From a virus: 64,000 bases of DNA. The translations under genes and the position numbers were made by a program. The DNA lies in the IMG/VR virus record IMGVR_UViG_3300020419_000859, one strand, 5' to 3'. This document shows, piece after piece, positions 19 through 23,032 of the stretch. Position 1 is the stretch's first letter, and each line of letters begins with the position of its first letter. Below the pieces are notes generated by a model. The model made no database searches and was not told where the DNA came from. It saw only the letters and a program-made list of their open reading frames with translations.

Positions 19-1239
19 ATGTTTAATTTTAAAGGTTTCATAACAAAAGAAAAAAACACACATTTAGAACATCTTGAAGATGATATAATCAACAGAGGTG
101 CTAGAGGTGGAGAGAACGCTGTAAAGTTTCTAAAATCAATTAGAAACATGTTAGCAGGATCTTCTGGTGCCAAAGTAAATATGTCTGTCAAGTGGGACGG
201 TGCGCCTGCTATAGTGTGTGGTATAAATCCAGAAAACGGCAAATTCTTTGTCGGTACTAAATCAGTATTCAACGCAAAACCAAAAATCAATTATACACCA
301 GGTGATATAAGAACTAATCATAGTGGACCTGTTGCAGATAAATTAAATGTTTGTTTAAGAGAATTAAAAAAATTAAGAATTACAGGTATCTATCAAGGCG
401 ATTTACTCTTTACAAATGATACAAAGATACAGAATATAGATGGTGAGGCTATGATAACTTTTACACCAAATACAATTACATATGCAACACCAGTAAATTC
501 TTCTTTAGGTAGAAAAATAAGAAGAGCAAGAATGGGAATAGTATTTCATACAAGTTATACAGGTAAAGATATGAAAAGTTTAGGTGCTGGTTTTGGCACT
601 ATATCTGGTAGATCAGGTAGTACATCGGTATTTTTAGCAAGTGCTGGCTATACAGATACTTCCGGTTCATCTACGTTTACTAGTGGTGAACTATCTAGAT
701 TTGATGGTTTAATTAGAATGGCTGAAGGCTCTTTAGGTAAAGCGTCTACTATATTAAATGAAATGTCAAGATCAAATGATTCTTTATCAGTTGGTTTTAG
801 ACTAAAGGCTTTCTTTAATCATTATATTAGAAACACACAAGGTCACATGGGTAAGGTAAAAACTTTACAAAAAATGTTTAGAGATTATTATACTAATATT
901 TTAACGGAAGAAATAGCAAATAGAAAAACACCAAAAGGTAAACAAAAATACAAAGATTTATTAGATACTAATTTAAAATTTATAGATAGAAACGAACAAT
1001 CATTATACTTTGCAATTGCGTCACATGTAAGTTTAGGTAATGCAAAGAACTTTTTAATATCAAAACTATCTCAAATACAAAGTATCGGCCATTTTATTAG
1101 AACATCAAACGGTTATAAAGTAACCAATCCAGAGGGTTATGTTGCAGTAAGCAGATCAGCTGGTGCAATTAAATTAGTAGACAGATTAGAATTTAGTAGA
1201 GCAAACTTTACTATTGCTAAAGATTGGGTAAAAGGATAA
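19..1239 (+). CDS. DUF6267-like conserved phage protein; probable ligase/capping-superfamily nucleotidyltransferase
   Basis: Motifs VKWDG (KxDG), YQGDLLF, PEGYVAV and IKLV occur in the order of covalent-NTase motifs I, III, IV and V. N-terminus MFNFKGFITKE. Confidence 0.6.
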   Translation: MFNFKGFITKEKNTHLEHLEDDIINRGARGGENAVKFLKSIRNMLAGSSGAKVNMSVKWDGAPAIVCGINPENGKFFVGTKSVFNAKPKINYTPGDIRTNHSGPVADKLNVCLRELKKLRITGIYQGDLLFTNDTKIQNIDGEAMITFTPNTITYATPVNSSLGRKIRRARMGIVFHTSYTGKDMKSLGAGFGTISGRSGSTSVFLASAGYTDTSGSSTFTSGELSRFDGLIRMAEGSLGKASTILNEMSRSNDSLSVGFRLKAFFNHYIRNTQGHMGKVKTLQKMFRDYYTNILTEEIANRKTPKGKQKYKDLLDTNLKFIDRNEQSLYFAIASHVSLGNAKNFLISKLSQIQSIGHFIRTSNGYKVTNPEGYVAVSRSAGAIKLVDRLEFSRANFTIAKDWVKG

Positions 1240-1820
1240 TGATAGGATTTAAAGATTATATATTTAAGTTTCTAGAAGAAAAAAGACAGCCAAAGATTAT
1301 TTTAATAGGTGGTCCAGGTAGTGGCAAATCTACTTACGCTAAATTTTTAGTAAAAGAATTTAATATAGATCACATATATCCTGGTGATTTATTAAGAAAA
1401 GAAAAACAAAGTGGTAGTGAAATGGGTAAAAGACTTAATTTAGGTAAAGGAGACTTTGCTCCGAATGACATAGTTAAGAAACTTGTATTTGACGCAGTTG
1501 ATAAAGCAGATGGTTTTGTATTTGATGGTTATCCAAGATACATGCAACAAGTCAAAGACATGAACAATAAAGGTATAGTAATTAATAATATAGTATATTT
1601 AAATGTAAGTGAGGAAGAAGTTATAAGAAGATTAACAGCTAGAGGTAGAGCTGATGATAAACCTGAAGTTATTAAACATAGAATAGAACTATATCAAAAA
1701 GAAACAGGTCCGGTAATTGAACACTATAGAGATCATGCCGGTTTTATAGAGATCAAAGCTGAAGGCGCAGAGCCGGAAGAGATCGCAAAACAAATAATAA
1801 ATAAGGTTAAAAACAAATGA
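1239..1820 (+). CDS. adk: Adenylate kinase (short, LID-less type)
   Basis: GGPGSGKST P-loop, GDLLR, FDGYPR, RGRADD. Likely start is ATG 1239, overlapping the upstream TAA. Confidence 0.9.
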   Translation: MIGFKDYIFKFLEEKRQPKIILIGGPGSGKSTYAKFLVKEFNIDHIYPGDLLRKEKQSGSEMGKRLNLGKGDFAPNDIVKKLVFDAVDKADGFVFDGYPRYMQQVKDMNNKGIVINNIVYLNVSEEEVIRRLTARGRADDKPEVIKHRIELYQKETGPVIEHYRDHAGFIEIKAEGAEPEEIAKQIINKVKNK

Positions 1821-2173
1821 AAACTTTTAAAGAATATGAAAACAAATTAGATGAGATAGATTCTATTTGTGAGAATATGAAATACGATGACCTTGTGGTT
1901 GAAGAATCTGAGCATGAGGGCAAGAAAGTAAAATTAAATAATCCTGTTCGTTCAAGTGATGGTAAAAAGAAATTTTACGTTTACGTTAAGAACGAAAAGG
2001 GCAACGTAGTTAAGGTTGGCTTTGGTGATCCAAATATGGAAATCAAAAGAGACGACCCTAACCGAAGAAAGAATTTTAGAGCGAGACACAACTGTGCTAA
2101 TCCAGGTCCGAAATGGAAAGCAAGATACTGGAGTTGTTATCAGTGGAGAGCTGGCGCTAAAGTAGACAACTAA
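1817..2173 (+). CDS. Conserved small basic phage protein (DUF6321-like)
   Basis: KKFYVYVKN..VKVGFGDP..RRKNFRARHNC..ARYWSC pattern; leader MKTFKEY..LDE. Confidence 0.55.
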   Translation: MKTFKEYENKLDEIDSICENMKYDDLVVEESEHEGKKVKLNNPVRSSDGKKKFYVYVKNEKGNVVKVGFGDPNMEIKRDDPNRRKNFRARHNCANPGPKWKARYWSCYQWRAGAKVDN

Positions 2174-2186
2174 TAGGAGTAATATA

Positions 2187-2861
2187 ATGTATATAAAAGG
2201 TGGAATGAAAAAACTATCAAAAGCGATTGCAAAATCTACCAAAGAGAGTTTGGATAGAGAAATAGCAATAGCAGAAAAGGAGCAACAGATGATGGACGAA
2301 GCAAATGGTATCAAGTTTCCTACAAATCCAAGTGTAGGCGATACTGTAGAAGCACCAGAACCTGTGCTAAATGAAGATAGAAAAGGAGTTGATCTAGCAG
2401 ATGGATCAAAACTTGAGGACATGTCAATAAAAGAAAAATTAGGAACATGGTCTCATAACTTTTCTCAATTAGAGGAAAAAGAAAAATTTTACTATTTACT
2501 TGAACAAGGTAAAGGTATAATTGAACTTGATGAATCTAAAAGAATTAACGGATACAGAATACATGGTTGTGTCAGCCAAGTTTGGATGATACCGTCTTTG
2601 AAAGAAGACAAAATGTTATTTGAAGTAGACGCTGATTCACATGAGGCAAGAGGTGTGATGTATATTCTACAAAACATAATGTCTGGCCACACACCAAAAG
2701 AAATTTTGGAAGTGACAGATGACGATATCGTAGATATAGGTTTCTATGGTGTATTAACTGAAAGAAGACGAAAAGGTGTTTTTGTAGTTATGCAGGCAAT
2801 AAGAACTTATGCTAAAGATATGGAAGAAATACTAGACGAGGCGGCTAAAGCACAAGGTTAA
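2187..2861 (+). CDS. sufE: SufE-family Fe-S sulfur acceptor with an N-terminal extension
   Basis: RIHGCVSQVW (conserved Cys), DADS..ARG, LTERRRKG. Confidence 0.8.
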   Translation: MYIKGGMKKLSKAIAKSTKESLDREIAIAEKEQQMMDEANGIKFPTNPSVGDTVEAPEPVLNEDRKGVDLADGSKLEDMSIKEKLGTWSHNFSQLEEKEKFYYLLEQGKGIIELDESKRINGYRIHGCVSQVWMIPSLKEDKMLFEVDADSHEARGVMYILQNIMSGHTPKEILEVTDDDIVDIGFYGVLTERRRKGVFVVMQAIRTYAKDMEEILDEAAKAQG

Positions 2862-2862
2862 T

Positions 2863-3555
2863 ATGAAAACACTAAAAGAAGTCACAGCATTTTTATCCGA
2901 GGGTGTATATGACCCAGGAATATTTAAAGCTTTCTTCTTAGCAGGTGGACCAGGCTCAGGCAAAACTTTTGTCACGAGTCAAGCCTTTGCAGGTACAGGT
3001 CTTAAAATAGTAAACTCTGATACAATCTTTGAAAGAGGATTGTTAAAGGCAAATTTATCTTTAAAAATGCCAGATGAGGAAGAATATTTTAGAAACATTG
3101 TACGAGCAAAAGCAAAGTTAACAGCCGGCTCGGCTTTAGATCAATATGTAAAAGGTAGATTGGGTTTAGTCATAGACGCAACAGGTCGTGATAAGACAGT
3201 TATAGGAAGACAACATTCTATGTTATCAGCACTTGGTTACGATTGTTATATGATATTCGTAAACACAAGTTTAGAGGTGGCCATGGAAAGAAACAAGACT
3301 AGATCAAGATCAATACCAGAATATATTGTAAAAAATAGTTGGAATAAAGTACAACAAAACATAGGGTCTTTTCAACATATGTTTAGGGCAAGTAATATGT
3401 TAATTATTGACAACAACAGATCAGAAGCTGAACTTGTTAGTAATACAATTAGAACTGCCTCATCATATATTAGAAGACAGATTAGAACTAATCCTAATAA
3501 CTATATTGCTAAACAATGGATAGCAAAAGAACTAGAGGCTAAAAAAAGAATATGA
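2863..3555 (+). CDS. P-loop kinase (AAA_33/zeta/polynucleotide-kinase-like)
   Basis: LAGGPGSGKT, VNSD, LVIDATG, FVNTSLEVAMERN..R.R lid. Confidence 0.75.
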   Translation: MKTLKEVTAFLSEGVYDPGIFKAFFLAGGPGSGKTFVTSQAFAGTGLKIVNSDTIFERGLLKANLSLKMPDEEEYFRNIVRAKAKLTAGSALDQYVKGRLGLVIDATGRDKTVIGRQHSMLSALGYDCYMIFVNTSLEVAMERNKTRSRSIPEYIVKNSWNKVQQNIGSFQHMFRASNMLIIDNNRSEAELVSNTIRTASSYIRRQIRTNPNNYIAKQWIAKELEAKKRI

Positions 3556-5852
3556 AAACTTTTAAAGATTACTTAATCAAAGAGAGTATCATAGATATAC
3601 CAAGACGTACATACGCTCCTGGTGTATTTGATAATGCTGATAGTAAAGACCCTAAAATAAAACCAAGCGTGAAAAAATTAATTGATGATCAGATAAAAAT
3701 ATTTGAGAAAGAATATCCAGTAATTAAAACAGCATTAATAGGTTCTATACTTACAAAGAGATATAGAAATGACGCTGATCTGGACATTAATGTATTGTTT
3801 GACGTACCAAAAGACAAACAAGAAGACGAAAGAGTCAATCTTTCTCAAAAATATTTGTCAGCAAAAAATCCAAAAAACATACAAGGTAAGTTAATACCTG
3901 GCACTAAACATCCTATTAACTACTACTTTATAACAGATCAAAAAACATATGACGATCAGAATAAAAAGGCTGACGCAGTGTTTGATATAAACAACGATAA
4001 GTTTATAAAACGACCTGAAGATTTTACTTTTGATACAAACTTATATATCAAAGAGTTTGAAAGAAAAGTACAAGAGTTAGATGTAGTAAAAGGAGAATTA
4101 AAACGTGATATAATTGATTACCATGAATTAGTTGAATTACAACCAGATGATATATTAAACTTACAAGAAAAGATAAATGAAAAATTAGAAGAAATAGAAG
4201 ACAGTATTAAAGAGATAATAAAAATAGGTGATGATGTTGACGCAGATAGAAGAGCTGCATTTGCTGGTGATATGACACCAGATGAAATTAGAAAATATGG
4301 AGTTAAGAATAGATTACCTAAAAATGTTATCTACAAAATGTTAGAAAAATATCACTACTTAAAATTTTATAAGAAATGTAAAATGATATTAGATGATGGT
4401 AAGGTTACCGATGATGAGATAAAAAGTTTAACTAGTGAAGATATAGACAACATGAATGCAGAATCAATCGCTTCAGCATGGGACGATTTAATTAGAAGAA
4501 CATTTAGACGTAAAGAAATGGGAAGAGGTTTACAACTGTATGTAAAATATTTAAGACAAGGAATGAAAGACGCCAAAAATAAGGCAGCTCAACATGCTGG
4601 TATAGATTATGGTGTATTTGGAAAAGCAGTTAGAGACGCAGGACTTCCTGAAGAAGTAAACGAAGATTTAAGAAGACCTAGAAAATCAGTTGCATTTACT
4701 TTTGGTAGATTTAATCCACCAACTATAGGACATGAAAAACTTATTAAGAAAGTTAAATCAGTAAGAGCAAATGATCACAAAATTTATTTAAGTAGAAGTG
4801 AAGACAGTAAGAAAAATCCATTATCGCCTACACAAAAACTGGCGTATATGAAAAAAATGTTTCCTTCTCACGCAAGAAATATAGAGATAAACAAAACAAA
4901 CATGATATTGGATATAGCTACAACCTTACATAATAAAGGTTATACAGAAATCTTTATGGTTGTAGGTAGTGATAGAGTAAGAGAATTTGAAACAATATTA
5001 AACAAATATAACGATGTAAAATCAAGACATGGTTACTATAACTTTGATAACATAAATGTGTTATCGGCAGGCGAGAGAGATCCAGACGCAGAAGGAGCTA
5101 CAGGTATGTCAGCAAGTAAGATGAGAGCAGCTGCTAGTGCTAATGATCTATCTAGTTTTAAAAGAGGTTTACCTGGTGGTGTTGACGCCAACGCATTGAT
5201 GAAAGATGTAAGAAAAGGTATGAGATTGGCTGCCAGTATGGAATATAGTAATACGAACATGTTAACTATGGAACAATTTGATCAACAACAAATAAGAGAC
5301 CTATATTTAAGAGATATGATATTTAATATAGGAGAACATGTTGATTACACAAAACAGAATATACAAGGAACAGTTAAAAGAAAAGGTACAAACTATATTG
5401 TACTAGAAGATAACAATAATAATTTACACAAAGCATGGATTTGGGACTGTATACCAATAGCTTCTGATAAAGAGGTTGCAGTACGAGAACACAATTTAAA
5501 TATTGACTATGGCTTTGAGGCTATATCTGAAAAGAAATTTGCCGATTTAAAGAAAGAATTAACGATGAAATTAGAGAAAGAAGCGTTTGAAATAGGGCAT
5601 GATTATGCCAATCATACGAAAGAAATAACACCGGGAGAGAAGCCAGAAGCTAAACCAGTTGACGTTAAAGACAGAGGGTGGCCTACACAAGGTTACAAAG
5701 AGATAAAAGATGAGAAAATAAATGAAAAAGACGTAAATAATTGGGCTTCTGAAGCTGAAACAATAGATAAATATAAACAAAGATTTAAGGAGGAATGGAA
5801 AAGTAAGTTAGATGAGGCAGTAGTTAAGATGTTAAAAGACTTACAATCCTAA
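3552..5852 (+). CDS. Fusion of a Pol-beta-type nucleotidyltransferase (N-term) and an HxGH cytidylyltransferase-like domain (C-term)
   Basis: IGSILT...DADLDINV (GS..DxD); FGRFNPPTIGHEKL, VVGSDR, SAGERDPDAEG..GMSASKMR as in marine T4-like cytidyltransferases. Confidence 0.8.
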   Translation: MKTFKDYLIKESIIDIPRRTYAPGVFDNADSKDPKIKPSVKKLIDDQIKIFEKEYPVIKTALIGSILTKRYRNDADLDINVLFDVPKDKQEDERVNLSQKYLSAKNPKNIQGKLIPGTKHPINYYFITDQKTYDDQNKKADAVFDINNDKFIKRPEDFTFDTNLYIKEFERKVQELDVVKGELKRDIIDYHELVELQPDDILNLQEKINEKLEEIEDSIKEIIKIGDDVDADRRAAFAGDMTPDEIRKYGVKNRLPKNVIYKMLEKYHYLKFYKKCKMILDDGKVTDDEIKSLTSEDIDNMNAESIASAWDDLIRRTFRRKEMGRGLQLYVKYLRQGMKDAKNKAAQHAGIDYGVFGKAVRDAGLPEEVNEDLRRPRKSVAFTFGRFNPPTIGHEKLIKKVKSVRANDHKIYLSRSEDSKKNPLSPTQKLAYMKKMFPSHARNIEINKTNMILDIATTLHNKGYTEIFMVVGSDRVREFETILNKYNDVKSRHGYYNFDNINVLSAGERDPDAEGATGMSASKMRAAASANDLSSFKRGLPGGVDANALMKDVRKGMRLAASMEYSNTNMLTMEQFDQQQIRDLYLRDMIFNIGEHVDYTKQNIQGTVKRKGTNYIVLEDNNNNLHKAWIWDCIPIASDKEVAVREHNLNIDYGFEAISEKKFADLKKELTMKLEKEAFEIGHDYANHTKEITPGEKPEAKPVDVKDRGWPTQGYKEIKDEKINEKDVNNWASEAETIDKYKQRFKEEWKSKLDEAVVKMLKDLQS

Positions 5853-5857
5853 TAGAC

Positions 5858-7594
5858 ATGACAAGATATAGAAAAACAATGGCAGAGGCCTGGAACGAGT
5901 CAATCTTAATTGAGAGTGGCTTAATGGGTACTATCAAACCAGATCAATTAGACAATATCAAAAAAGTATGGGCTAAAAAGTCTATGAAAGATGTCACTCC
6001 TGGAGTGAGAGCTATGTTGGCAAAATTAGATATGCCTACTAAAGTTGCAGTTAAACATGCTAATATAAATGTACTATCTAAACTAGTATTAGATGAAAAA
6101 GAATTAGAAGAACAAACAGAATTAGACGAAGGCAGAATGAAAGATATATTTACTGCCGACCAAGAAGGCAAGTCTGCCGAAGAAATAGCAAAGAGATTAA
6201 AAATATCAGTAAAAACAGTTAAAGATATTTTAGGTGTAAAAGAACAAGTGGCAATAGATGAGGGTGGTGTTAAGGCTGCTCTTATGGATGTAGAAGATGA
6301 CGCTACTAGAATGGACTTAAACAAGTTTATTAGAAAACATTATGGAACTATGGGCTTATCTGCTCAAGAATTAAAGAAAATATTTTACAGAGTTAACAAT
6401 GAAGAAACTGAATTAACAGAAATTGCTAACTTTACTGCCTCAATGATTAATGTTCTTAAAAAAGAATACGAACCAATGAGAGGTAAAAAAATTACAGCTG
6501 CTAGAGCAAAACAATTAATGAACATACTTGATAAACTAAATGATAAAAATTTAGAAACTTTATCAAAACAAAATATACCTTTTGTATCAAGTGGTTCTGC
6601 TAGTAAACTTGCAGTAAGAAAAATGAAATTCAAAGTCACTAACGTAAACCCTTTCAAAGAAGAGGTTGAAAGTATAGACGAGAAGATTGATCCGTTTATG
6701 TTATCTTACAGTGACAGATATGGTAAACATGCTGGTTTTGAGGGTGCTAAAACTTTACAAGACTTACAAAACAAGGCAGCCAATTTAAGAAAAAAAGGAT
6801 TTAAGATTGATAAAATGGGTAGATATAATCCACCTGTTAAAGAAGATATACAAAATGAAGCATGTTGGGTAGGTTATAAACAAGTAGGTATGAAAAACAA
6901 AGGTGGTAAAGAAGTACCTAATTGTGTACCCGAAGATAAAGAATTAGAAGAACATATAGAAGAAATGGCTAAAGATGACGCTTATGCAATCGGTATGGCA
7001 GCCGCTAAAAAACACACAGGCGATACTGAACCACCTTTAGAAAAATCTACAATTACTAAAGGTCATGAGATTGCAAAGAAAATATTAAAGAAAGAAGATT
7101 TAGACGAGAGTACAAAGGCAGTTAGAAAAAAAGCAGACAAATCTAAAATGCCTTATTCAGTATTAAAGAAAGTTTACGATAGAGGTATGGCAGCTTGGAA
7201 AGGTGGCCATAGACCAGGTGCAACACAAGTACAATGGGCTCTTGCTAGAGTAAATTCATTTATTACAAAAGGCAGTGGCACATGGGGTGGCGCTGATAAA
7301 GATTTAGCAAAACAAGTTAGAAGTGAAGATTTAAGGGCAGTACCACAAGACGGTGACGTTAAGAAAAAAGATGGTACTCAACCTAAAAAATACTATAAAG
7401 GGTTAAGTAAGTCAGAAAAAGGTAAGAGAGCAGATTACTTTAAAAACAATGACAGTAATAAACCAGCACCAGGTGATAAAGACGCAAAAACTAAACCATC
7501 TATTCACACTAACAAATATAAAAAAATGTATGGCGAGGGTGCAAAACAATTAGTAGATAGAATATTAAAAGAAAAAATGGAGAAAAACAAATGA
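5858..7594 (+). CDS. Modular internal-head-type protein with C-terminal DUF5824-like segments
   Basis: Many (L/I)xE junctions; ACWVGYKQVG..VPNCVP; KKVYDRGMAAWKGGHRPGA..QWALARVNSF; QPKKYYKGLSKS. Confidence 0.5.
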   Translation: MTRYRKTMAEAWNESILIESGLMGTIKPDQLDNIKKVWAKKSMKDVTPGVRAMLAKLDMPTKVAVKHANINVLSKLVLDEKELEEQTELDEGRMKDIFTADQEGKSAEEIAKRLKISVKTVKDILGVKEQVAIDEGGVKAALMDVEDDATRMDLNKFIRKHYGTMGLSAQELKKIFYRVNNEETELTEIANFTASMINVLKKEYEPMRGKKITAARAKQLMNILDKLNDKNLETLSKQNIPFVSSGSASKLAVRKMKFKVTNVNPFKEEVESIDEKIDPFMLSYSDRYGKHAGFEGAKTLQDLQNKAANLRKKGFKIDKMGRYNPPVKEDIQNEACWVGYKQVGMKNKGGKEVPNCVPEDKELEEHIEEMAKDDAYAIGMAAAKKHTGDTEPPLEKSTITKGHEIAKKILKKEDLDESTKAVRKKADKSKMPYSVLKKVYDRGMAAWKGGHRPGATQVQWALARVNSFITKGSGTWGGADKDLAKQVRSEDLRAVPQDGDVKKKDGTQPKKYYKGLSKSEKGKRADYFKNNDSNKPAPGDKDAKTKPSIHTNKYKKMYGEGAKQLVDRILKEKMEKNK

Positions 7595-8340
7595 GTTATT
7601 TAAAAAATAAACCAAATTCTCTAGAAGACATGGCAAAACAAATGTCAATTCATACCAATGAATCTGATTACAAAACTATGTTTAAAAAAGAGTTAGAGAA
7701 ATCAGGTAAAAAAGGTATTGGTTCTATGACAGATAAAGAAAAAAAAGATTTCTTTAACAGAATAGATAACAAGTATAGTGCTAAAAATGAAGCAGTGACA
7801 AATGAGTTAACAAGTGCTCAAAAGAAATTACCACCTGCTTTACAAAAAGCAATTAAAGCAAAAGAAAAAAAAGAAGAGTCTGTAAATTGGGCAGAGGCGG
7901 CTGAAGAACAAGAGAAAAGACAAGAAGACGCTAAGTATTTTAAAACAGAAGCTAAAGATATACCACCAATTGACAAAGACAATAAACCAGGTGTTAAGAT
8001 CGCTAAGATTAGAGCAATGAAAGGTGACGACAAAGAAAAGAAAGAGTCAGAAATTGAAAAACTTAAAGATCAAAACGCATTATTAAAACAAAAATTAGAA
8101 AACGAAAAACATAAGGCTGTAAAACCTCAACCTAACAAAGATACAGGAGAAGTACCTTTATCTATAGGTATTGCATACAAACATTTAAGAGACAAAATGC
8201 AAAAAGAGGAACAAGAAAAGTCTATGTCGGATACAACAGCAGAGAGAGATAAAGAAATGAAAGAACCAAAAGGTAAAACTATGACTGGTCAAGAAAAAAC
8301 TCCTGTTGAAATGAATCCAAAAATGAATCATAAATTCTAA
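7591..8340 (+). CDS. K/E-rich hypothetical protein (possible prohead/internal protein)
   Basis: Long ORF coupled to its neighbours; highly charged composition. Confidence 0.45.
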   Translation: MSYLKNKPNSLEDMAKQMSIHTNESDYKTMFKKELEKSGKKGIGSMTDKEKKDFFNRIDNKYSAKNEAVTNELTSAQKKLPPALQKAIKAKEKKEESVNWAEAAEEQEKRQEDAKYFKTEAKDIPPIDKDNKPGVKIAKIRAMKGDDKEKKESEIEKLKDQNALLKQKLENEKHKAVKPQPNKDTGEVPLSIGIAYKHLRDKMQKEEQEKSMSDTTAERDKEMKEPKGKTMTGQEKTPVEMNPKMNHKF

Positions 8341-8342
8341 TC

Positions 8343-8573
8343 ATGGCTTGGGTAGACGTACCAAACTCTAATAGTATCTGGCAGTATGAAAACTCTGCTA
8401 CGATAACACACACATACAAAGATTCGGCTGATGGTGCGAACTCTGTAATATCAGGTGGTATTAGAACATATACAAAACCTGGTACAAGTGATACAGTACA
8501 AGTCTATATAAGAACAAGAAAAAAAGGTGAAACAACAGAGAGAGGAGAACTCTCAAAGACCTACTTTGATTAA
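8343..8573 (+). CDS. Hypothetical protein
   Basis: ORF in operon context. Confidence 0.5.
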   Translation: MAWVDVPNSNSIWQYENSATITHTYKDSADGANSVISGGIRTYTKPGTSDTVQVYIRTRKKGETTERGELSKTYFD

Positions 8574-8578
8574 GAATT

Positions 8579-9073
8579 ATGGCAAAACTACCGAGAATAT
8601 ATTGTGACATGGATGGTGTCCTTTGCGATTTCGTAAAGGGTGTTGAGAAACTTCACAATATAACCATTGACAAATGGTCATATGGTAGTAAGACTGAAAA
8701 GTGGTCTAAAGTAAAAGCAACTCCTAGATTTTGGCATACTCTACCATGGCAGACAGGTGGTAGACAACTATGGTCTTTCATATCTAAACATAAACCACAT
8801 ATCTTATCAGCATACGTAGAGGAAAGTTTTGATCCTAATTGTATACCAGGTAAGACACATTGGGCAAGAACAAATTTAGGCCTATCAGCACCAAGAATTA
8901 ACCTAGTAAAACGTGTACAAAAACAACTATACGCAAAAGTATTAGGTGATCCAGCACTACTAATAGACGATTATAAGAAAAACGTAGATCAATTCATCGC
9001 AAGAGGTGGTAAAGCAATACACCACACTTCAACTTCCAACACAATTAGACAGTTAAGATCGCTAGGTTTCTAA
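8579..9073 (+). CDS. HAD-family 5'(3')-nucleotidase/phosphatase
   Basis: IYCDMDGVLCD (motif I), ILSA, K, LLIDDY (motif IV). Confidence 0.85.
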   Translation: MAKLPRIYCDMDGVLCDFVKGVEKLHNITIDKWSYGSKTEKWSKVKATPRFWHTLPWQTGGRQLWSFISKHKPHILSAYVEESFDPNCIPGKTHWARTNLGLSAPRINLVKRVQKQLYAKVLGDPALLIDDYKKNVDQFIARGGKAIHHTSTSNTIRQLRSLGF

Positions 9074-9084
9074 CTTATTTCCGT

Positions 9085-9092
9085 TATAAATA
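9085..9092 (+). promoter_or_regulatory. T4-type late promoter
   Basis: Intergenic TATAAATA upstream of the structural gene at 9139. Confidence 0.75.
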
Positions 9093-10919: not shown

Positions 10920-11037
10920 ATCATTCGTAAAAGAAGAAGATTTAAAAGATTTTGAGGAAGATGTTTTAGCAGGCAAAAAGCCTGCTGAAGCGCCTGAAGA
11001 AACAAAAGAGGAAGAAAAAAAAGATGAAAACATTTAA
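10906..11037 (+). CDS. 43-aa acidic peptide with capsid-targeting-like leader (below the ORF track cutoff)
   Basis: MKKFKSFVKEEDLKDFEEDVLAGKKPAEAPEETKEEEKKDENI; overlaps both neighbours. Confidence 0.5.
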   Translation: MKKFKSFVKEEDLKDFEEDVLAGKKPAEAPEETKEEEKKDENI

Positions 11038-11452
11038 AAAGTACGTACAGGAACACATGACTGTTGGCGTTGGTACACCTGAAGTAAATTCTGTTGAAGA
11101 CGGAAGTATGGGTGTTCATAACATACATGATCCTAAAATTTTAGAGAGAGTGAATGCTTTTGTTGGTTCTATTGCTGAGAAGGAATATATTAATCCTTCA
11201 GCTGCTGTTGAACAACTAGCAAATAAATTGAAAACAATTGGACTAGAAGTAAAACTACCAGCAATGGAAGGCACTAATGGTACAATAACAGGTGAAGTTT
11301 GCCAATTCGGTGGAAGATTTGGTAAAGACGTAGATGGTTCTGATATTAATGATGATGGTATATCTCATAGAAAAGAGGGTGGCCTTAAACTAGAGGTTAA
11401 GTACGAAACATTAAAAACAGGATCAAGTAAAGTCTACGCTAAATTAGTGTAG
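11024..11452 (+). CDS. Conserved hypothetical protein (possible internal protein)
   Basis: Leader MKTFKKYVQE. Confidence 0.5.
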   Translation: MKTFKKYVQEHMTVGVGTPEVNSVEDGSMGVHNIHDPKILERVNAFVGSIAEKEYINPSAAVEQLANKLKTIGLEVKLPAMEGTNGTITGEVCQFGGRFGKDVDGSDINDDGISHRKEGGLKLEVKYETLKTGSSKVYAKLV

Positions 11453-12295: not shown

Positions 12296-12644
12296 AGCAA
12301 TGATGGACGAAATCATTAACAAGATGGACGAAGACGCTCCAGCTAATGCTACAGGTACGGCCGTTGCAGGAACAGGTGACGACAACTCTGTACATACAAA
12401 AAAATCAGAATTAGATAAGATGAAAAGACGTGATCCATTGGCAACAGGATATGTTGGATCAGTTGTACCTTTATCAACAAGAATTAAAGAGAGTGACGAT
12501 AACAATAGTATGATGTTAAAAGGTGTGTTAGATAAAATTGATAGTATAGAAGTTAAGATAGATGAAATGACACAACCTAAAACAGAAATTATAGAAACAA
12601 AAGAAAAAGAATATAAAACATTTAAGGACAAATACAATGCTTAA
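12279..12644 (+). CDS. Hypothetical protein
   Basis: Coupled ORF; EDAPANATG.AVAG motif. Confidence 0.5.
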   Translation: MTRHYKAMMDEIINKMDEDAPANATGTAVAGTGDDNSVHTKKSELDKMKRRDPLATGYVGSVVPLSTRIKESDDNNSMMLKGVLDKIDSIEVKIDEMTQPKTEIIETKEKEYKTFKDKYNA

Positions 12645-12834
12645 AACTTTTGAAGAATATCTTACAGGTAAAAAGAAAGAGAAAAAAGTTAAGAAAGAAT
12701 ACATGGGTTCTGCTGTTGCAGGTCAATCGGGTCCAGGTTTAGGTAGATTTAGACCCACAGTAAGTATGTATAAAAAGTCCGAAGGAACAGCTTTACATAA
12801 GTACCTAGTTAAAAAAGGTGTTTTAAAAAAATAA
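12637..12834 (+). CDS. Small basic hypothetical protein
   Basis: Leader MLKTFEEYL. Confidence 0.45.
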   Translation: MLKTFEEYLTGKKKEKKVKKEYMGSAVAGQSGPGLGRFRPTVSMYKKSEGTALHKYLVKKGVLKK

Positions 12835-16424: not shown

Positions 16425-16910
16425 ATGAAAACATCACTAGGAAAGGTGATGTTAGTAGTGTTTTTATATACTTCCTTGATTTCATCAATACTGGCATCCG
16501 AACTAACACATGAATTTAAAAATCCTGCCTTTTCTGGTAATGGCTACTCGTCTCATGTACTTTCTATAAATCAATTAGAAGTACAAAGAGAACAAAAAGC
16601 ATTTGATGACTTAAAATCAGCAGCTGCGGCCGCTGAAAGAGAAGAAAAAAACAAGACGGTAAATAAATTTATCGCCAATGTTGAGAGTAGAATTTATGCT
16701 AATTTATCCAAACAGTTAGTAGATAACATGTTTGGTACAGAATGCGACAGTAGTACTACTACTTGTCCAACAAGTGGCACATCAGAAATTGAAGGTGCTA
16801 CCATATCATGGGTAAAAGATACAACTACCGAAGTGATTACTTTAACGATTACAGCTGATGATGGAACAGTGACAACTATGTCTGTTCCTATAGGTGACTT
16901 TAAATTTTAG
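16425..16910 (+). CDS. csgF: Curli assembly protein CsgF
   Basis: Signal peptide then SELTHEFKNPAFSGNG (CsgF NP.FxG motif); F...VESRIY..LS.QL; adjacent to csgG. Confidence 0.8.
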   Translation: MKTSLGKVMLVVFLYTSLISSILASELTHEFKNPAFSGNGYSSHVLSINQLEVQREQKAFDDLKSAAAAAEREEKNKTVNKFIANVESRIYANLSKQLVDNMFGTECDSSTTTCPTSGTSEIEGATISWVKDTTTEVITLTITADDGTVTTMSVPIGDFKF

Positions 16911-16918
16911 GAGAAATA

Positions 16919-17758
16919 ATGTTTAAAATATTAGCCGCTCTTTTATTAGGGCTGACTTTGACAAGTTGCGCTACGAATAAAAATATGGAAATATATAAAG
17001 GTGAGGCACCTTTTATTGAGGGTAGTACAACTAAAGAAAGATTATTGGCTTTACCTGATTTAGATAATCAGCCAATAATTACTATTGCTGTATACAGATT
17101 TACGGACCAAACAGGTCAGAGAAAACCTAGTACAAAGTTTTCTCAATTATCAACTGCTGTCACACAAGGTGGTAGTATGTTTGTTGTAGACGCTTTTAAA
17201 TCTATCTCTGGTGGAGATTGGTTTCAAGTGTTAGAAAGAGAAGGATTAGATAATCTAATTAAAGAAAGACAATTAATTAGATCAACTAGAACAGAATACG
17301 ATGGCGAAGCGAATGCTGGTAATGTTTTAAAACCACTTCTTTTTGCCGGAATAATAGTTGAAGGTGGCGTTATAGGTTATGATAGTAATATAAGAACAGG
17401 TGGACAAGGCGCTAGGTATTTGGGTATTGGAGTAAGTGAACAGTACAGAGTAGACGTGGTAACAATTACATTAAGACTAGTATCTGTACAAACAGGAGAA
17501 ATTTTATTAAATGTCAACGTGACTAAAACAATTGCTAGTCACGCAAAAGGTGGAGACGTATTCACATTTTTAGATATGAATACAAAGGCTCTAGAAATAG
17601 AAAGTGGCGTATCAGTAAATGAACCGGTAACATATGCCATAAGATCAGCCATAGAGCACGGAGTACTAGAAATAGTATATATGGGTAAAGATAAAGGTTA
17701 CTGGAAGTTTAAAGAAGAAAAGACAAAGGGAATACACAACAATGAAAACATTAATTAG
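16919..17758 (+). CDS. csgG: Curli secretion pore lipoprotein CsgG
   Basis: Lipobox LTSC; AVYRFTDQTGQRKP, STAVTQG, WF.VLER.GL.NL.KERQ.IR, EGG.IGYDSN..TGG.GARY.GIG. Confidence 0.95.
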   Translation: MFKILAALLLGLTLTSCATNKNMEIYKGEAPFIEGSTTKERLLALPDLDNQPIITIAVYRFTDQTGQRKPSTKFSQLSTAVTQGGSMFVVDAFKSISGGDWFQVLEREGLDNLIKERQLIRSTRTEYDGEANAGNVLKPLLFAGIIVEGGVIGYDSNIRTGGQGARYLGIGVSEQYRVDVVTITLRLVSVQTGEILLNVNVTKTIASHAKGGDVFTFLDMNTKALEIESGVSVNEPVTYAIRSAIEHGVLEIVYMGKDKGYWKFKEEKTKGIHNNENIN

Positions 17759-18425
17759 CTTTATATTATTCATCTTGATGACAAATTTATCATGGTCTAA
17801 TGATATATACGTCACACAGTCAGGTGCTAGTCTTGATTTAGATATAACACAAGACGGAGAAAATAACACTGTTGGTAATAGTACAACGGCGTCTGCTTCT
17901 GCTGGTGCTACGACTATATTAAACATAGATCAAATAGGAAACTCAAACGTAATTACATATCAGATTAACGGTGCAACATACACAGGTGTTATCAATTTAG
18001 TTGGTAACTCAAACAATGTTGATTTAAATTGTGATAGTACAGCCGGTAACTCATCATGTGGTAGTGCTAATGCAGTAATTAATTTTACAGGTAACTCAAA
18101 CGACATTGATTTAGATATAGGTCAAACATCATCAGCTACTTCAGCAGATGTTGATATAGTTGGTCAATCAGGTTCTGATTCAAACGTTGTTGCTGCTACT
18201 GTTGATGGTAATAGTGCAATCTTAACAATCACAGTAAATGGTGATACTAACAATTATTTAATTGACATAGACGGCAATGGTGACGCTAACGGTCATACAT
18301 TAATACACTCACACACAGGTGGTATTGCAGACGTAGATATTGTTCAAAGTGGTACTAACGATAACATGATTACGTTAACAACAAGCGGAGATAACGCAGA
18401 TATTGATATCTCTCAAACAGACTAA
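17742..18425 (+). CDS. Curlin-repeat (CsgA/CsgB-like) secreted protein
   Basis: Signal peptide; repeated I/V-x-Q-x-G-x-x-N beta-arc units; N/D/G/S/T-rich. Confidence 0.7.
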   Translation: MKTLISFILFILMTNLSWSNDIYVTQSGASLDLDITQDGENNTVGNSTTASASAGATTILNIDQIGNSNVITYQINGATYTGVINLVGNSNNVDLNCDSTAGNSSCGSANAVINFTGNSNDIDLDIGQTSSATSADVDIVGQSGSDSNVVAATVDGNSAILTITVNGDTNNYLIDIDGNGDANGHTLIHSHTGGIADVDIVQSGTNDNMITLTTSGDNADIDISQTD

Positions 18426-18469
18426 TATGGATTACATAAACATTATTTTATTTTTTGGGATTATTTTAT

Positions 18470-19591
18470 ATGCAAACATTTCGTTTTACAATTGGGTTCA
18501 TACTCTTAATCCTTACGATTTTAGCGATAAACGTAAGAAGTAGTTTTGCTACAATAGGCGAAGTCACTTTACATAAAGGTAGTGCCGTTATAGACAGAAA
18601 ATCTGGAGAGAAAGACATTGAGGTACAAAAAAACCTTAATGTCTTCTCTTACGATACTGTAAAAACTGGCGATGGTAAAGTTGGTATACAATTCATTGAT
18701 GATACAAGAGTTGATGTCACTGAACATAGTAAATTATTAATTGACGAATTTATATACGATCCAAATACACAAACAGGTGCCTTATCTCTAAAGGCCACAC
18801 TAGGTACAGTAAGGTATGCTAGTGGTCAAATTGCAAAAAACTCCAAACAAAACGTAAAGATCAGTACACCTACGGCTACCATAGCTGTTAGAGGTACGGA
18901 TTTTACTATGACAGTTGACGAGATAGGTGGTTCAACTATTGTATTATTACCTAGTTGTGATGGTGCTGGTTTCTGTTATGTAGGAGAAATAGAAGTAATG
19001 ACAGACGCAGGTTTTGTAATAATGAATCAGGCCTTTCAAGCAACATATGTTGATAGTGTAGAAACAAAACCTATAATACCTGTATTATTAGATTTAGATA
19101 TTGATATGATTAATAATTTATTAATTGTAAGTCCACCAGAAAAGGTTGAAGAACAAATACAAACAGAAAGAAAGTTGGCAGTTGCTAGTGCTTTAGATTT
19201 AGACTTTTTAAAGTTTGATGAATTAGAAATTGACTTACTAGATAACTCTGCCGAAGAAGAAGCTTTTACAGCTTTAGATGTTGACTATTTAGATTTTGAT
19301 TTCTTAAAAGACATATTAGAAGAATTAAATAAACAACTTGCTTTAGAAATGAGAAGCGAATTTGATAAGAAAAAAAATAAAAAGAAAGCAGGACAAGATG
19401 AGTTTGGTGTAATATTATTAGATGAGGATCCACAATGGGTGTGGATGAGAACCGATGAATCAAATAATAATATTGTATTAAGATTAGATCAAGAATATGG
19501 ATATACTATAAACGTTATACAAGGAGATACAGAAATTATTGATTATGAGTTAGGTGATGGATCAAATCAAATAAGGATAAATCAACAATGA
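18470..19591 (+). CDS. FecR-domain periplasmic protein with acidic C-terminal region
   Basis: Signal/TM; D.VKTG..V.I.F.DDT.V.V.E.S.L.IDEF.YDP; I.TPTATIAVRGTDF. Confidence 0.85.
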   Translation: MQTFRFTIGFILLILTILAINVRSSFATIGEVTLHKGSAVIDRKSGEKDIEVQKNLNVFSYDTVKTGDGKVGIQFIDDTRVDVTEHSKLLIDEFIYDPNTQTGALSLKATLGTVRYASGQIAKNSKQNVKISTPTATIAVRGTDFTMTVDEIGGSTIVLLPSCDGAGFCYVGEIEVMTDAGFVIMNQAFQATYVDSVETKPIIPVLLDLDIDMINNLLIVSPPEKVEEQIQTERKLAVASALDLDFLKFDELEIDLLDNSAEEEAFTALDVDYLDFDFLKDILEELNKQLALEMRSEFDKKKNKKKAGQDEFGVILLDEDPQWVWMRTDESNNNIVLRLDQEYGYTINVIQGDTEIIDYELGDGSNQIRINQQ

Positions 19592-21003
19592 AATATGTAA
19601 TAATAGGATTAACAATTATACTAGCTTGTTTAGGTACTTGTTTTTCTCCTAAAGCAAACGCTTCTGATACAGCATTAATATATCATAGTAGTTATCAAGA
19701 CTCTCATACTAATGTTAAAGATCAATTAGAGGCAGATGGCTATACGGTTACACTTTCAACAAGTGGTTCTGTTGCTAGTAATTTAATTAATAGTTATGAC
19801 ATTGTTGTAGATTTAAAATATAATAGCAATTGTGGTAGTACATGTAGAACAAATTATCAATCTTTTGTACAAGCAGGTGGTATATTAATTATCACTGGTG
19901 AAAATAATAATTATTCTAATAGAAATAATAATATTAAAAGTTTGATAACAAGTAAGTTTAGTGGATCACTTACACTAGGTGGCAACACAAGTGGTTGTGC
20001 TAGACCTTGTACTAGTCCTAATAACTCAAATACTATATCACAAACTAATACATCTATAACTGATAGCAATTATACTAGTTTTGGTTATTATCCTTATGGT
20101 ACTAAAATTACTTCAGGTGATGGTACATGGGTGGCAAAAAATACATCTGGCGATATTGTGTGGATGCGATGGACAGGTGACGAACTACCTAGTGGTTATA
20201 CAGGTGCAGTTTATATTACCTTTGATATAAACCAATTTGAAACAGCATTTGATGGTGCAAACTTTGATAGTTTTATTTCAGATTTATATACATCAATGTC
20301 AACACCTCAAGCAGGTATAACTTCATCACAACAAACAGAGGTAACTACAGCAAAAAATAAAACTAATAATGGTAATGCAATTTATATAACTCAAAGTGGT
20401 AGTGGTATTGATTTAGATATAGTACAAGACGGAGATAATAATTTAGTTATAGGATCAGATTTAACTAATGCAGGCTCTATACAAGGAGATAATAACGAGA
20501 TAACATTAACACAAAACAATAACAATAATGTAATAGGTATTGATGTAAATGGTAATACAAACGATGTAGATATATGGCAAGATACAGATCAACGAGCAGT
20601 TGTAAATATAACAGGCGCCTCAAATACACTAGACCTAGAACAATTACACCTAAATAACACCGGAGACCACTTTTCTAAAGTGACAGTGAACGGCAATAGC
20701 AATACAATGACAATTGACCAGAAAGAAACTGGCGATAAGGTATTATTTTTAGAAGTAGACGGAAATAATAATGTAACCGTAGATCAAAAAGGAACTGGTA
20801 GCCATTTTTTAGATGTAAATCTAACAGATAGTCACACTGTAGACGTGACACAAGACGGTACAGGTAGTCATAATGCTAAAATACATTTAAGTGGAAATAC
20901 ATCATCTGTTACCTTAACACAAGATAGTAGTACAAATCAAAACTATGTTCTTGAACAAAATTGCTCTAGTAGTAGTTGTTCAGCAACAGTGACACAAAAC
21001 TAA
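19588..21003 (+). CDS. Large curlin-repeat protein with an extra N-terminal globular domain
   Basis: Signal peptide; ~230-aa N domain; C-terminal Q-x-G-x-x-N/H repeats starting NAIYITQSG..LDI.QDG.NN as in the 17742 protein. Confidence 0.7.
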   Translation: MKYVIIGLTIILACLGTCFSPKANASDTALIYHSSYQDSHTNVKDQLEADGYTVTLSTSGSVASNLINSYDIVVDLKYNSNCGSTCRTNYQSFVQAGGILIITGENNNYSNRNNNIKSLITSKFSGSLTLGGNTSGCARPCTSPNNSNTISQTNTSITDSNYTSFGYYPYGTKITSGDGTWVAKNTSGDIVWMRWTGDELPSGYTGAVYITFDINQFETAFDGANFDSFISDLYTSMSTPQAGITSSQQTEVTTAKNKTNNGNAIYITQSGSGIDLDIVQDGDNNLVIGSDLTNAGSIQGDNNEITLTQNNNNNVIGIDVNGNTNDVDIWQDTDQRAVVNITGASNTLDLEQLHLNNTGDHFSKVTVNGNSNTMTIDQKETGDKVLFLEVDGNNNVTVDQKGTGSHFLDVNLTDSHTVDVTQDGTGSHNAKIHLSGNTSSVTLTQDSSTNQNYVLEQNCSSSSCSATVTQN

Positions 21004-21224
21004 TGATTAAATGGACTAAAAATAAATGGCAAAAATTTAAGAAGTGGTCTACAGTGGATCATTGGATTGATCTATTTGTAGATGTAGGACTTATTGCGTT
21101 TGATGTTTTATCTAGTCCAGTATTAATTGTTGTAAGATTTATTAGGTACTTTTTTAACAAATACGTAAACGGCCATATAAAAAGATTTTTAAAATGGTTT
21201 GCACATAAGGTATTGAGACTATGA
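21003..21224 (+). CDS. Small amphipathic/membrane protein
   Basis: ATG overlaps the upstream TAA; coupled to the cyclase start. Confidence 0.5.
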   Translation: MIKWTKNKWQKFKKWSTVDHWIDLFVDVGLIAFDVLSSPVLIVVRFIRYFFNKYVNGHIKRFLKWFAHKVLRL

Positions 21225-23032
21225 AATGGCTTACACATTGGACAATTGCGTTTGTAACCTTATTTGTTTTAACATTTATAGGTTTAAAAGAACCACAAGT
21301 AAAAGAGATATTAAGATTAAAAACATTTGATTTATTATTACAATCAGAAACAAAAGAATTATCACAAGACATAGGTATAATTACAATAGATGAAAAGGCA
21401 ATAGAAAAATATGGTCAATGGCCATGGCCTAGAAGTGTATTAGCAGACATTATACTTAAAGCAAGACTAGATGGTGCTCAGGTTATAGTAGTGCCTATAC
21501 TTTTTAGTGAACCAGATAGAATGGGATACGATGAAGATTTAGCAGACGTATTACCATATCATATAGTAATATCACAAGTTGGTACTAATCAAACAAACAA
21601 AAATGGTGTGCCTAGAGGAGTTGCAAAAGTAAACGATCCTTTACCTTTCTTATTTGAATGGGGAGGTATGTTAGGTCCTATAGAGAAATTTCACAACGCA
21701 AGTGGTGTAGGTGTATCAAACACTGTACCTGAAGTTGATGGTGTTGTAAGAAGAATACCTTTATTAATGAAAATAGGTGAGGACATATATCCTGCCATGG
21801 CAATAGAAGTTATTAGAGTTGCTGTAGGTGCTCCTAGTTATCAAGTTAAATCAGGAGAAGCAGGTGTACAAGCGATGAGGGTTCCTGGTTTTCCTACAAT
21901 TAAGACAGACGCAAATGCCAGAATATGGTTAAGATGGAATAAAGAATACGAAACTATATCAGCTGCTGATATGGATTTTACAAAGTTTGCCGGTAAAACT
22001 GTAATCATAGGTATGAGTGCTGAGGGTTTAGGTGGTATCATAGCAACACCAATAGGCGAAAGATATGCCTATGAATTAACGGCCTCTACTTTAAATACTG
22101 TATTACAAGGAGAACAAATAATAAGAACTGATATAATGCCTTTGATAGAAATGGCTGTTGCAGTTGTATTATCTATTTTAATGATTTTAGTAGTTAGATT
22201 TTTTCCTTATTTGTTTATTATAACTTTATTGATAGGTACATATGGTGTTAGTTGGATAGCCGTATCACTTCTTTTTGAAAATAAACTAATGTTAGTTGAT
22301 ATGAGTTGGGCGATGTTAACTTTATCTATAGTAGTATTTCATTCCGTATTCACAAGATTTATTTTAGAGTTTAGATTGAAACAACAAATTAAAAAACAAT
22401 TTGAACACTACTTAGCACCTGCCATGGTAAAAAGATTACAAAAAAATCCTGAACTTTTAAAATTAGGTGGTGAAACAAGAGAGTTAACATTTTTATTTTG
22501 TGATATAAGAGGTTTCACTCCTATTTCAGAAAAGTATCAATCTGATCCACAAGGACTTACAGTAGTTATAAACAAATTTCTAACACCCATGACAGACATA
22601 ATTATGAAAAATGGTGGTACTATTGATAAGTATATGGGTGATTGCATAATGGCGTTTTGGAACGCTCCTATTGATATTCCGAACCATAGGACAATGGCTG
22701 TTAAGTCTGCTGTGGAGATGGTTCACAAACTAAAAGACCTAAATAATAGTGAGGGTTTTGGTCCAGGTAATAAGTTAAACATTGGTATAGGTATCAACTC
22801 TGGTAAGGCCGTAGTTGGTAATATGGGATCAAAACAAAGATTTGATTATTCAGTTTTAGGTGACGCTGTTAATTTGGCGAGTAGATTAGAAGGAGTATCT
22901 AAAAATTATGACGCTACAATAATAATAGGATATGACACATACAAAAACATCAAAGAAAAATACAACTTCAAAAAACTAGATCAGGTCAAAGTCAAAGGTA
23001 AATCTAACCTAGTTTCCATCTACACTATTTAA
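21221..23032 (+). CDS. CHASE2-domain class III adenylyl cyclase
   Basis: CHASE2: ITIDE..YGQWPWPR, EVDGVVRRIP. Three TMs. Cyclase: FCDIRGFT, DKYMGDCIMA, GIGINSG, DYSVLGDAVNLASRLEG, VKGK. Confidence 0.95.
   Translation: MKWLTHWTIAFVTLFVLTFIGLKEPQVKEILRLKTFDLLLQSETKELSQDIGIITIDEKAIEKYGQWPWPRSVLADIILKARLDGAQVIVVPILFSEPDRMGYDEDLADVLPYHIVISQVGTNQTNKNGVPRGVAKVNDPLPFLFEWGGMLGPIEKFHNASGVGVSNTVPEVDGVVRRIPLLMKIGEDIYPAMAIEVIRVAVGAPSYQVKSGEAGVQAMRVPGFPTIKTDANARIWLRWNKEYETISAADMDFTKFAGKTVIIGMSAEGLGGIIATPIGERYAYELTASTLNTVLQGEQIIRTDIMPLIEMAVAVVLSILMILVVRFFPYLFIITLLIGTYGVSWIAVSLLFENKLMLVDMSWAMLTLSIVVFHSVFTRFILEFRLKQQIKKQFEHYLAPAMVKRLQKNPELLKLGGETRELTFLFCDIRGFTPISEKYQSDPQGLTVVINKFLTPMTDIIMKNGGTIDKYMGDCIMAFWNAPIDIPNHRTMAVKSAVEMVHKLKDLNNSEGFGPGNKLNIGIGINSGKAVVGNMGSKQRFDYSVLGDAVNLASRLEGVSKNYDATIIIGYDTYKNIKEKYNFKKLDQVKVKGKSNLVSIYTI

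Follow-up and report, generated by a model that had tools for sequence, protein, structure and literature searches.

The 64,000-nucleotide stretch of viral DNA analyzed here (the window; IMG/VR record IMGVR_UViG_3300020419_000859) begins with a run of ten genes at 19-9073, two products of which concern us most: a predicted RNA-ligase-like nucleotidyltransferase of the family DUF6267, and the HIGH-superfamily adenylyltransferase that is its constant partner. The window has 32% GC with its genes on one strand, and carries T4-like primase, NrdAB, RNase H, gp32, gp2 and baseplate genes. The nearest cultured match of the DUF6267 open reading frame (ORF) comes from Pelagibacter phage HTVC008M (50%), with which the local gene order is shared, and the source is a marine, HTVC008M-related T4-like phage, probably of the SAR11-infecting type. 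The gp41 helicase gene precedes the cluster in close relatives, HTVC008M, Melnitz, S-PM2, S-CRM01, P-TIM40, S-SZBM1 and EniLVp02, and gp61 comes after it wherever the record extends that far. The features of the run are the following:

19..1239, + strand: DUF6267 / phrog_455, predicted RNA-ligase-like nucleotidyltransferase of 406 amino acids, no OB domain (profile, model and alignment)
682..1071, + strand: basic helical insert of DUF6267 (residues 222-351), between motifs IIIa and IV
1239..1820, + strand: adenylate-kinase-family nucleoside monophosphate kinase (Adk; PF00406, E 3e-35), optional
1817..2173, + strand: 118-residue protein whose T4 internal-protein-like leader is the strongest; its place in the locus varies
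2187..2861, + strand: SufE-domain protein, a rare insert outside the module
2863..3555, + strand: P-loop hydroxyl kinase of the PNK / zeta / PSTK group, with leader (AAA_33 2e-11, Zeta_toxin 3e-9)
3552..4436, + strand: Pol-beta-fold domain resembling minimal nucleotidyltransferases (NTases), with a helical C-terminal part (residues 1-295 of ORF 3552-5852)
4683..5222, + strand: HIGH-superfamily adenylyltransferase domain (the cyanophage 'cytidyltransferase', phrog_395/3041)
5319..5456, + strand: small all-beta domain downstream of the HIGH domain; its SH3 likeness is one of secondary structure only
5858..8573, + strand: three charged modular proteins of 578, 249 and 76 residues, with DUF5824 in the 578-residue one
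8579..9073, + strand: HAD phosphatase of the 5'(3')-deoxyribonucleotidase type, no leader

Successive genes are separated by -1, -4, 13, 1, -4, 5, -4, 2 and 5 nucleotides, the ATG of Adk overlapping the DUF6267 stop codon, and because every gap is an overlap or at most 13 nucleotides we regard the coupling as real. A preliminary description of this DNA had placed five named enzymes and their motifs in one coupled run, and all of these ORFs and motifs were located. Its portrayal of the run as an enzyme operon is right about the coupling but not about the content: five of the ten genes (the 118-residue protein, the SufE-domain protein at 2187-2861, and the proteins of 578, 249 and 76 residues) are not those of nucleotide enzymes and lie interspersed, and the HAD gene is distant, 2.7 kilobases (kb) downstream of the NTase and 7.3 kb downstream of the ligase-like gene.

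DUF6267 (phrog_455) counts 2,745 relatives at 50% clustering, and our literature search found no paper naming it. The motifs of the ligase superfamily can be followed along the window protein: KWDG as motif I (K58, nucleotides 190-201, with D60), K81 as Ia, QGD at 126-128 as III (D128), F176-H177 as IIIa, EGYV as IV (E372, nucleotides 1132-1143), and K385 as V, followed by V387 and R389. Among 106 family members of 35-88% identity, K58, D60, H18, H177, G373, K385 and N396 are invariant, while K81, D128 and E372 are kept in 105 and R389 in 104. The motifs are also intact in the short cyanophage forms and in the Vibrio phage copy; the helical insert is some 60 residues shorter in some cyanophage proteins.

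The structural model of DUF6267 (predicted local distance difference test score, pLDDT, 89.9; predicted template modeling score, pTM, 0.87) points to the same superfamily. Sequence searches against solved structures gave nothing meaningful and Foldseek found no match in the PDB under E 0.09; ligases surfaced only with a structural aligner that tolerates rigid-body movement. In a search of 48,161 representatives, the first eight matches were RNA ligases, headed by NgrRnl (Z 7.6, root-mean-square deviation (rmsd) 4.1, 185 residues aligned) and including REL1 (7.3), Trl1 (7.0), T4 Rnl2 (6.8) and T4 Rnl1 (6.6), with DNA ligases at Z 5.0-5.9. A second structural search returned only ligases among the 50 matches listed, the first 20 of them RNA ligases, and a search of viral models gave RNA ligases as the first named matches outside the family. 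Overall, DUF6267 shows the two-sheet nucleotidyltransferase fold and aligns to RNA ligases with Z 6.1-7.9 and rmsd 3.9-4.6 over 170-199 residues. Capping enzymes and NAD+-dependent DNA ligases were not among the matches listed in the fold searches, a listing that does not exclude them. These searches, together with the near-invariant motifs, support the earlier suggestion that the KWDG...EGYV...K protein is a member of the ligase superfamily; of the structure-based checks, the wide search ranked RNA ligases first and Foldseek on the PDB alone was silent. The assignment of DUF6267, as a predicted enzyme, to the RNA-ligase side of the ligase / capping-enzyme nucleotidyltransferase superfamily holds, and its model suggests a new family of RNA-ligase-like nucleotidyltransferases.

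With the Rnl2 / Rnl5-type RNA ligases (T4 Rnl2, REL1, NgrRnl), Rnl1 and Trl1, the protein shares the fold, the order of motifs I, Ia, III, IIIa, IV and V, and the lack of an OB domain. What sets it apart from them is an identity of only 9-15%, the 130-residue helical insert between IIIa and IV, a histidine at IIIa with two further N-terminal histidines, the missing second lysine of motif V, and an end about 20 residues past that motif: no OB domain of the kind found in ATP-dependent DNA ligases and mRNA capping enzymes follows, the chain stopping 21 residues after K385 with a single helix there. The Rnl2 family profile PF09414 found no match at E 0.05 (phmmer against T4 Rnl2, E 0.6), the Rnl2-type K-x-K form of motif V and the C-terminal domain are absent, with V, I or T at position 387 in 106 of 106 sequences, and neither the Rnl1 profile PF09511 nor the C-terminal helical domain of that family could be matched. 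In sequence register with T4 Rnl2, K81 falls at the position of R55 and V387 (V/I/T) at that of K227. The T4 Rnl2 mutant K227Q can still seal donors that are already adenylated, whereas its exchange of adenylate with the donor is lost, a defect for which R55K compensates (PMC3149579); for DUF6267 this parallel may serve as a lead, and is not a result.

The partner domain, in ORF 3552-5852, has a Rossmann-like fold and bears the signature T391-I-G-H394, of which H394 is invariant, and a C-terminal S-x-S-K-x-R motif. Its nearest folds are NadM enzymes (Z 13.1 for 1f9a, and 12.7) and PPAT (12.2). Against the family cut-offs it reaches 14-27 bits where more than 100 are set, and PPAT ties with NadM/NadD. 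As the domain falls between NadM, NadD and PPAT and below every cut-off, neither 'cytidylyltransferase' nor 'NMNAT' is established, although cyanophage orthologues are annotated as NMNAT-like or as cytidylyltransferases. Fold, TxGH and S-x-S-K-x-R are common to this domain, to NadM, NadD and PPAT, and to the phage NMNAT of NAD+ reconstitution. It differs from them in having 13-19% identity, scores far under every NCBIfam cut-off and equal distance from NadM, NadD and PPAT, and in being tied to a ligase-like gene in a locus with no phosphoribosyltransferase. The small all-beta domain behind it is a separate ORF in S-PM2.

Cultured phage records matched by DUF6267 number 469, and those matched by the HIGH domain 564. 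The two counts run almost together in Synechococcus (369/375), Cyanophage (61/61) and Prochlorococcus (24/24) records, and are near-identical also for Melnitz and related phages; throughout the Kyanoviridae both families occur together. The HIGH domain is found in 37 of the 37 close loci with enough downstream sequence; its gene directly follows DUF6267 in S-RIM12, P-TIM40, S-SZBM1 and the Vibrio phage EniLVp02 (Straboviridae), lies one gene further on in DLP_6 and C48C1, and is fused to DUF6267 in S-PM2. Among 38 long DUF6267 homologues, 21 carry a fused HIGH domain, N- or C-terminal and with very divergent HIGH subfamilies included, compared with one fusion each for the kinase, the Pol-beta domain and the 118-residue module. 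One homologue, P0244, is a polyprotein of 1,325 residues in which DUF6267 and the HIGH domain are accompanied by an ATP-grasp ligase resembling RimK and by a putative protease domain. Even where structural relatives of DUF6267 share only 9-12% identity, their annotation is still that of a cytidyltransferase-domain protein. The HIGH enzyme is the constant partner of DUF6267.

These data bear on the rather unlikely notion that the locus is a depot, in which enzymes that act independently and are late or packaged (an NAD+ top-up enzyme resembling NMNAT, Adk, a nucleotidase and a ligase) share a late promoter and polyproteins form only for packaging. Unrelated modules do fuse to DUF6267 (the 118-residue module, as in P0215, RimK and DUF5824), and the slot between gp41 and gp61 accepts unrelated cargo: SufE in the window and, in S-CRM01 (L089:3657-6122), a Ser/Thr kinase whose N-terminus resembles a leader and whose gene separates DUF6267 from the HIGH gene. 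The genes are unlinked in S-CREM2 and ACG-2014f, the kinase lies far off in Melnitz, and non-enzyme neighbors match the synteny of the HAD gene (20/20). Shared cargo status would not, however, explain why HIGH fusions far outnumber those of each of the other window modules, occur in either order and involve very divergent HIGH subfamilies, nor why the pair persists where linkage is lost.

There are signals of late expression and, for part of the set, of packaging. Of 59 distinct close loci, 47 have a T4-type late-promoter motif no more than 80 nucleotides before their first gene; the corresponding figures are 0 of 48 at gp41 and 3 of 25 at UvsX. The nearest relative has the motif about 65 nucleotides before the ATG of the first gene, a spot whose equivalent lies just left of the window; within the window it next appears at 9085, past the HAD gene. 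Given a late motif before the first gene and another only after HAD, genes 19-9073 are most likely transcribed as one late unit. Counts of the sigma-70 promoter and of TATAAATA across the window show no excess over shuffles, so the promoter argument rests on position upstream of orthologues.

N-terminal leaders were scored against the real leaders of T4 ipI/II/III, with a pass threshold of 15 that we chose ourselves. The NTase (26) and the kinase (19) pass, while Adk (11) and the ligase-like protein (12) fall below; in orthologues, Adk passes in 15 of 19, the ligase-like protein in 0 of 33 and HAD in 0 of 19. Leaders over the threshold occur on three of the run's ten genes and on none of the 84 that lie past 12.9 kb (Fisher p 9e-4), and T4 IPI-III-like leaders are enriched in the region and absent from replication genes. 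The preliminary description had most of these enzymes carrying capsid-targeting-like leaders, which survives for the NTase and the kinase, and for Adk only in orthologues; the leader of the ligase-like protein is weak and HAD has none. The likeness to the T4 internal head proteins IPI, IPII and IPIII comprises the late promoter and a similar leader on the kinase, the NTase, Adk orthologues and small neighbors; in contrast to IPI-III, the cargo consists of enzymes, with a weak leader on the ligase-like protein and none on HAD. Two more small genes with strong leaders of this type lie at 11024-11452 and 12637-12834. Orthologues of the HIGH enzyme have been detected in purified virions of S-SZBM1, S-CREM2 and S-SCSM1, in proteomes whose authors caution about carry-over (PMC9146016, PMC10665884, PMC9602691). 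A relative of the Pol-beta domain, gp156, is also present in S-CREM2 virions (63% to S-CRM01 g125).

We favor, as the likeliest reading though one that stops short of probable, a two-enzyme core of DUF6267 and the HIGH adenylyltransferase that joins broken nucleic-acid ends, RNA likelier than DNA, with the kinase and the Pol-beta domain as clade-specific healing add-ons. Both core enzymes would be made late and at least the HIGH enzyme loaded into the head; early in the next infection, we infer, the core would join a 5'-phosphate to a 3'-OH end of a broken nucleic acid, most likely RNA. More weakly, we infer a division of labor in which the HIGH enzyme makes an adenylated donor (App-end) and the ligase-like enzyme, lacking the second motif-V lysine, mainly seals. 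Possible but doubtful is a strict split of ligation, partly head-delivered, in which the HIGH enzyme would supply an App-end or AppX and the ligase-fold enzyme would only join or transfer. A relay with the HIGH enzyme as maker of the adenylated donor accounts best for the partnership as well as for the absent lysine. Healing steps would be added in the SAR11-type clade, where the kinase would convert 5'-OH to 5'-phosphate and the Pol-beta domain would refill a trimmed 3' end, while Adk, SufE and probably HAD would be separate cargo of the same late cluster.

Several observations weigh against this end-joining core. All Z-scores of DUF6267 against ligases are below 8, and RNA ligases are ahead of DNA ligases by only about 1.5-2 Z; at such values the motifs carry part of the weight of the fold assignment. 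The helical insert (222-351), which has no counterpart, likely lowers these middling scores. The motif-V register is sequence-based, and R389 or the three conserved histidines may replace the second lysine. A search of the window found no tRNA gene. DUF6267 (SSZBM1_141) is not among the 30 virion proteins of S-SZBM1, which do include the HIGH enzyme, nor is it listed in the virion proteome of S-CREM2; its context in these two phages is leaderless or unlinked. The DUF6267 and HIGH genes lie 65-95 kb apart in S-CREM2 and ACG-2014f, and the DUF6267-like and HIGH genes of Deifobo are distant from each other as well; RaK2 has the HIGH enzyme and no detectable DUF6267, and EniLVp02 holds its own Rnl2-type and DNA ligases besides the pair. 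To our knowledge, no known ligation pathway uses a HIGH enzyme, and the relay would be without precedent. A complex prediction for DUF6267 and the HIGH domain scored 0.00, which gives no answer and is evidence neither way.

The kinase at 2863-3555 has its P-loop, the catalytic aspartate D53 in register with D35 of T4 Pnkp and the lid arginine in register, and has no arginine at the R38 position. Comparison with T4 Pnkp gives a profile E of 5e-4 (phrog_505, E 8e-8), but its best solved relative is zeta toxin (E 4e-4), and zeta and PSTK score as well as or better than Pnkp. All of 50 close loci have it; fusions join it to the NTase in four loci and to DUF6267 in P0204. Cyanophages contribute 0 of the 24 records that match the kinase, and three cyanophage genomes held no AAA_33 kinase over the cut-off. 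In Melnitz (L133:4001-5300) a kinase orthologue lies 52 kb from DUF6267, with a second HAD of the same family directly after it; the two form a possible split Pnkp-like pair.

A kinase of this kind invites another scheme, which we consider unlikely, namely a chain of activation and transfer. The kinase would make pX and the HIGH enzyme AppX, from which the ligase-fold enzyme would transfer pX, or else AMP, to a nucleic-acid end (RNA or DNA) or to a protein, with Adk recycling the AMP released; were X to be NMN, NAD+ would be the donor. A kinase coupled to a HIGH domain is the layout of NadR, RibF and HldE, approached here by the kinase-NTase fusions in four loci; zeta toxin, as a small-molecule kinase, and the NadM enzymes, with PPAT tied, as nearest folds of the HIGH domain also fit. 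T4 Rnl1 takes AppX dinucleotides as donors. Speaking against such a chain, cyanophages hold the DUF6267-HIGH pair without the kinase, motif IV reads EG as in ATP-dependent ligases, and the HIGH alignment shows no tryptophan where NadM stacks nicotinamide.

The Pol-beta domain carries G64-S65 and D76-x-D78, with N123 at the third acidic position; the relative in S-CRM01 has glutamate there. Its fold is minimal-NTase-like (1ylq, Z 8.4; MntA, E 1e-3), as judged from a domain folded only inside a 660-residue model whose match lists were filled by the HIGH domain. It occurs in 50 of 50 close loci. A tblastn search of cultured phages gave no match, while searching with the window profile did pick up g125 of S-CRM01 (E 1e-9), encoded two genes downstream of HIGH. 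The preliminary hint of a CCA-adding enzyme is not borne out: the domain shows no CCA-adding or Pol X signature, no GS-x-RR, and only sub-cut-off matches to Polbeta, NTP_transf_2, MTPAP-like and MntA. A phmmer match of the NTase to a STING chain spans 58 residues of a helical stretch and was taken as chance. A different Pol-beta family lies two genes after the ligase-like gene of Deifobo and is fused in P0224, and since this separate family also pairs with a ligase-like protein, the association recurs. In jumbo phages, the Pol-beta NTase RlaP accompanies RNA ligases (PMC7824862). The window shares with those pairs a Pol-beta NTase beside an RNA-ligase-like gene, but its domain matches no RlaP or CCA profile, is fused to the HIGH domain and has asparagine at the third acidic position.

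Were the substrate DNA, the system would repair nicks or single-strand breaks through the kinase, the phosphatase, fill-in by the Pol-beta domain and the ligase. The helical insert would replace the absent OB and DNA-binding domains, and abortive 5'-adenylates would be reversed by the HIGH enzyme. This we hold to be improbable. The position between gp41 and gp61 suits it, as do the lack of a PF01068 ligase in HTVC008M, Melnitz and S-PM2 and the restriction-nuclease-like ORF found upstream of the ligase-like gene in about 40 of 67 loci. Yet RNA ligases outrank DNA ligases, there is no OB domain, the Pol-beta domain is minimal-NTase-like and lacks the Pol X GS-x-RR, the promoter is late, and S-CRM01 and EniLVp02 keep a separate DNA ligase. 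The idea of DUF6267 as a stand-in for a missing gp30 is weakened by the same two phages, which have both, and by the late promoter.

The HAD protein at 8579-9073 has D10-x-D12 and D130-D131 and is of the NT5C / phrog_2643 type; its profile does not retrieve T4 PseT. It is found in 20 of 20 close loci, in which non-enzyme neighbors are equally syntenic, and in cyanophages its profile finds nothing (0 of 62 HAD-matching records, with four cyanophage genomes lacking NT5C). Adk is present in 26 of 50 close loci and missing from that of HTVC008M. These patterns matter for the version of events first proposed for this DNA, in which ligase, kinase, HAD, Pol-beta domain and Adk form one obligatory Rnl1/Pnkp-style tRNA kit that counters host anticodon nucleases. 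As in the T4 Pnkp and Rnl1 system, one region does bring together an enzyme of ligase fold, a P-loop kinase resembling Pnkp and a phosphatase with DxD; the kinase motifs are in register with T4 Pnkp, kinase and HAD are adjacent in Melnitz, and the close loci carry kinase, Pol-beta domain and HAD without exception. The proposed co-occurrence is accordingly seen in the closest relatives, where ligase, kinase, Pol-beta, HIGH and HAD genes are syntenic, and breaks down in cyanophages, about 450 records of which have the ligase-like gene and not the window-type kinase and HAD. Unlike the T4 enzymes, kinase and HAD are separate genes 5 kb apart, absent from most phages with the ligase-like gene; the HAD is NT5C-like and leaderless, Adk is optional, and the late promoter, the packaging leaders and the constant HIGH partner, which the kit leaves without a role, are further differences. 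One Rnl1 and Pnkp-like kit is highly improbable on this evidence, and the kinase, phosphatase and other neighboring enzymes are lineage-specific extras, not a fixed kit.

Several further features of the window and related loci deserve mention. The SufE-domain gene, found in 3 of 50 close loci, is one of two SufE-like genes in the window: that at 2187-2861 has an acidic N-terminal extension of 85 residues, and the other, at 46611-47030, follows a ferredoxin-like gene (46291). Just left of the window, a slot upstream of the ligase-like gene (L001:8512-9933; about 40 of 67 close loci) holds proteins of 350-500 residues from four interchangeable families with PD-(D/E)xK-like motifs (PADI ... SLK), many with their own late promoter. 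They are probably restriction-type nucleases by these motifs; neither Pfam nor PADLOC matched them, and PADLOC overall gave weak matches only. The Pseudomonas jumbo phage Deifobo (L095:2732-6038) encodes a divergent DUF6267-like ligase of 446 residues with canonical Arg/Glu in motifs Ia/III, found via a structural match to PA5oct and invisible to the DUF6267 profile. By eye, 16425-23032 holds signal-peptide curli-like genes (CsgF-, CsgG- and curlin-repeat-like), a FecR-like gene and a CHASE2-type adenylate cyclase, and 28753-33491 holds six or seven genes resembling those for glycosyltransferases or capsule modification, after nrdB.

While the ligase fold, the T4 repair paradigm and the HIGH enzyme as a virion protein were already known, neither the assignment of DUF6267 to the ligases nor its link to the HIGH enzyme appears in any paper we found, in a searched literature that omits most subscription papers. 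Nearly every T4-like cyanophage sequenced carries DUF6267 and the 'cytidyltransferase', as do pelagiphages; these are among the most abundant viruses of the sea. The predicted fold, the catalytic residues and the link to a virion-borne HIGH enzyme make two core 'hypotheticals' assayable as a pair. They also put in question the common view that the HIGH enzyme stands alone, as an enzyme of NAD+ or of the cell wall. A natural seal-only ligase, if DUF6267 is one, would be useful for adapter ligation, and if the pair repairs RNA, marine phages without a recognizable Rnl1 or Rnl2 would own a repair route.

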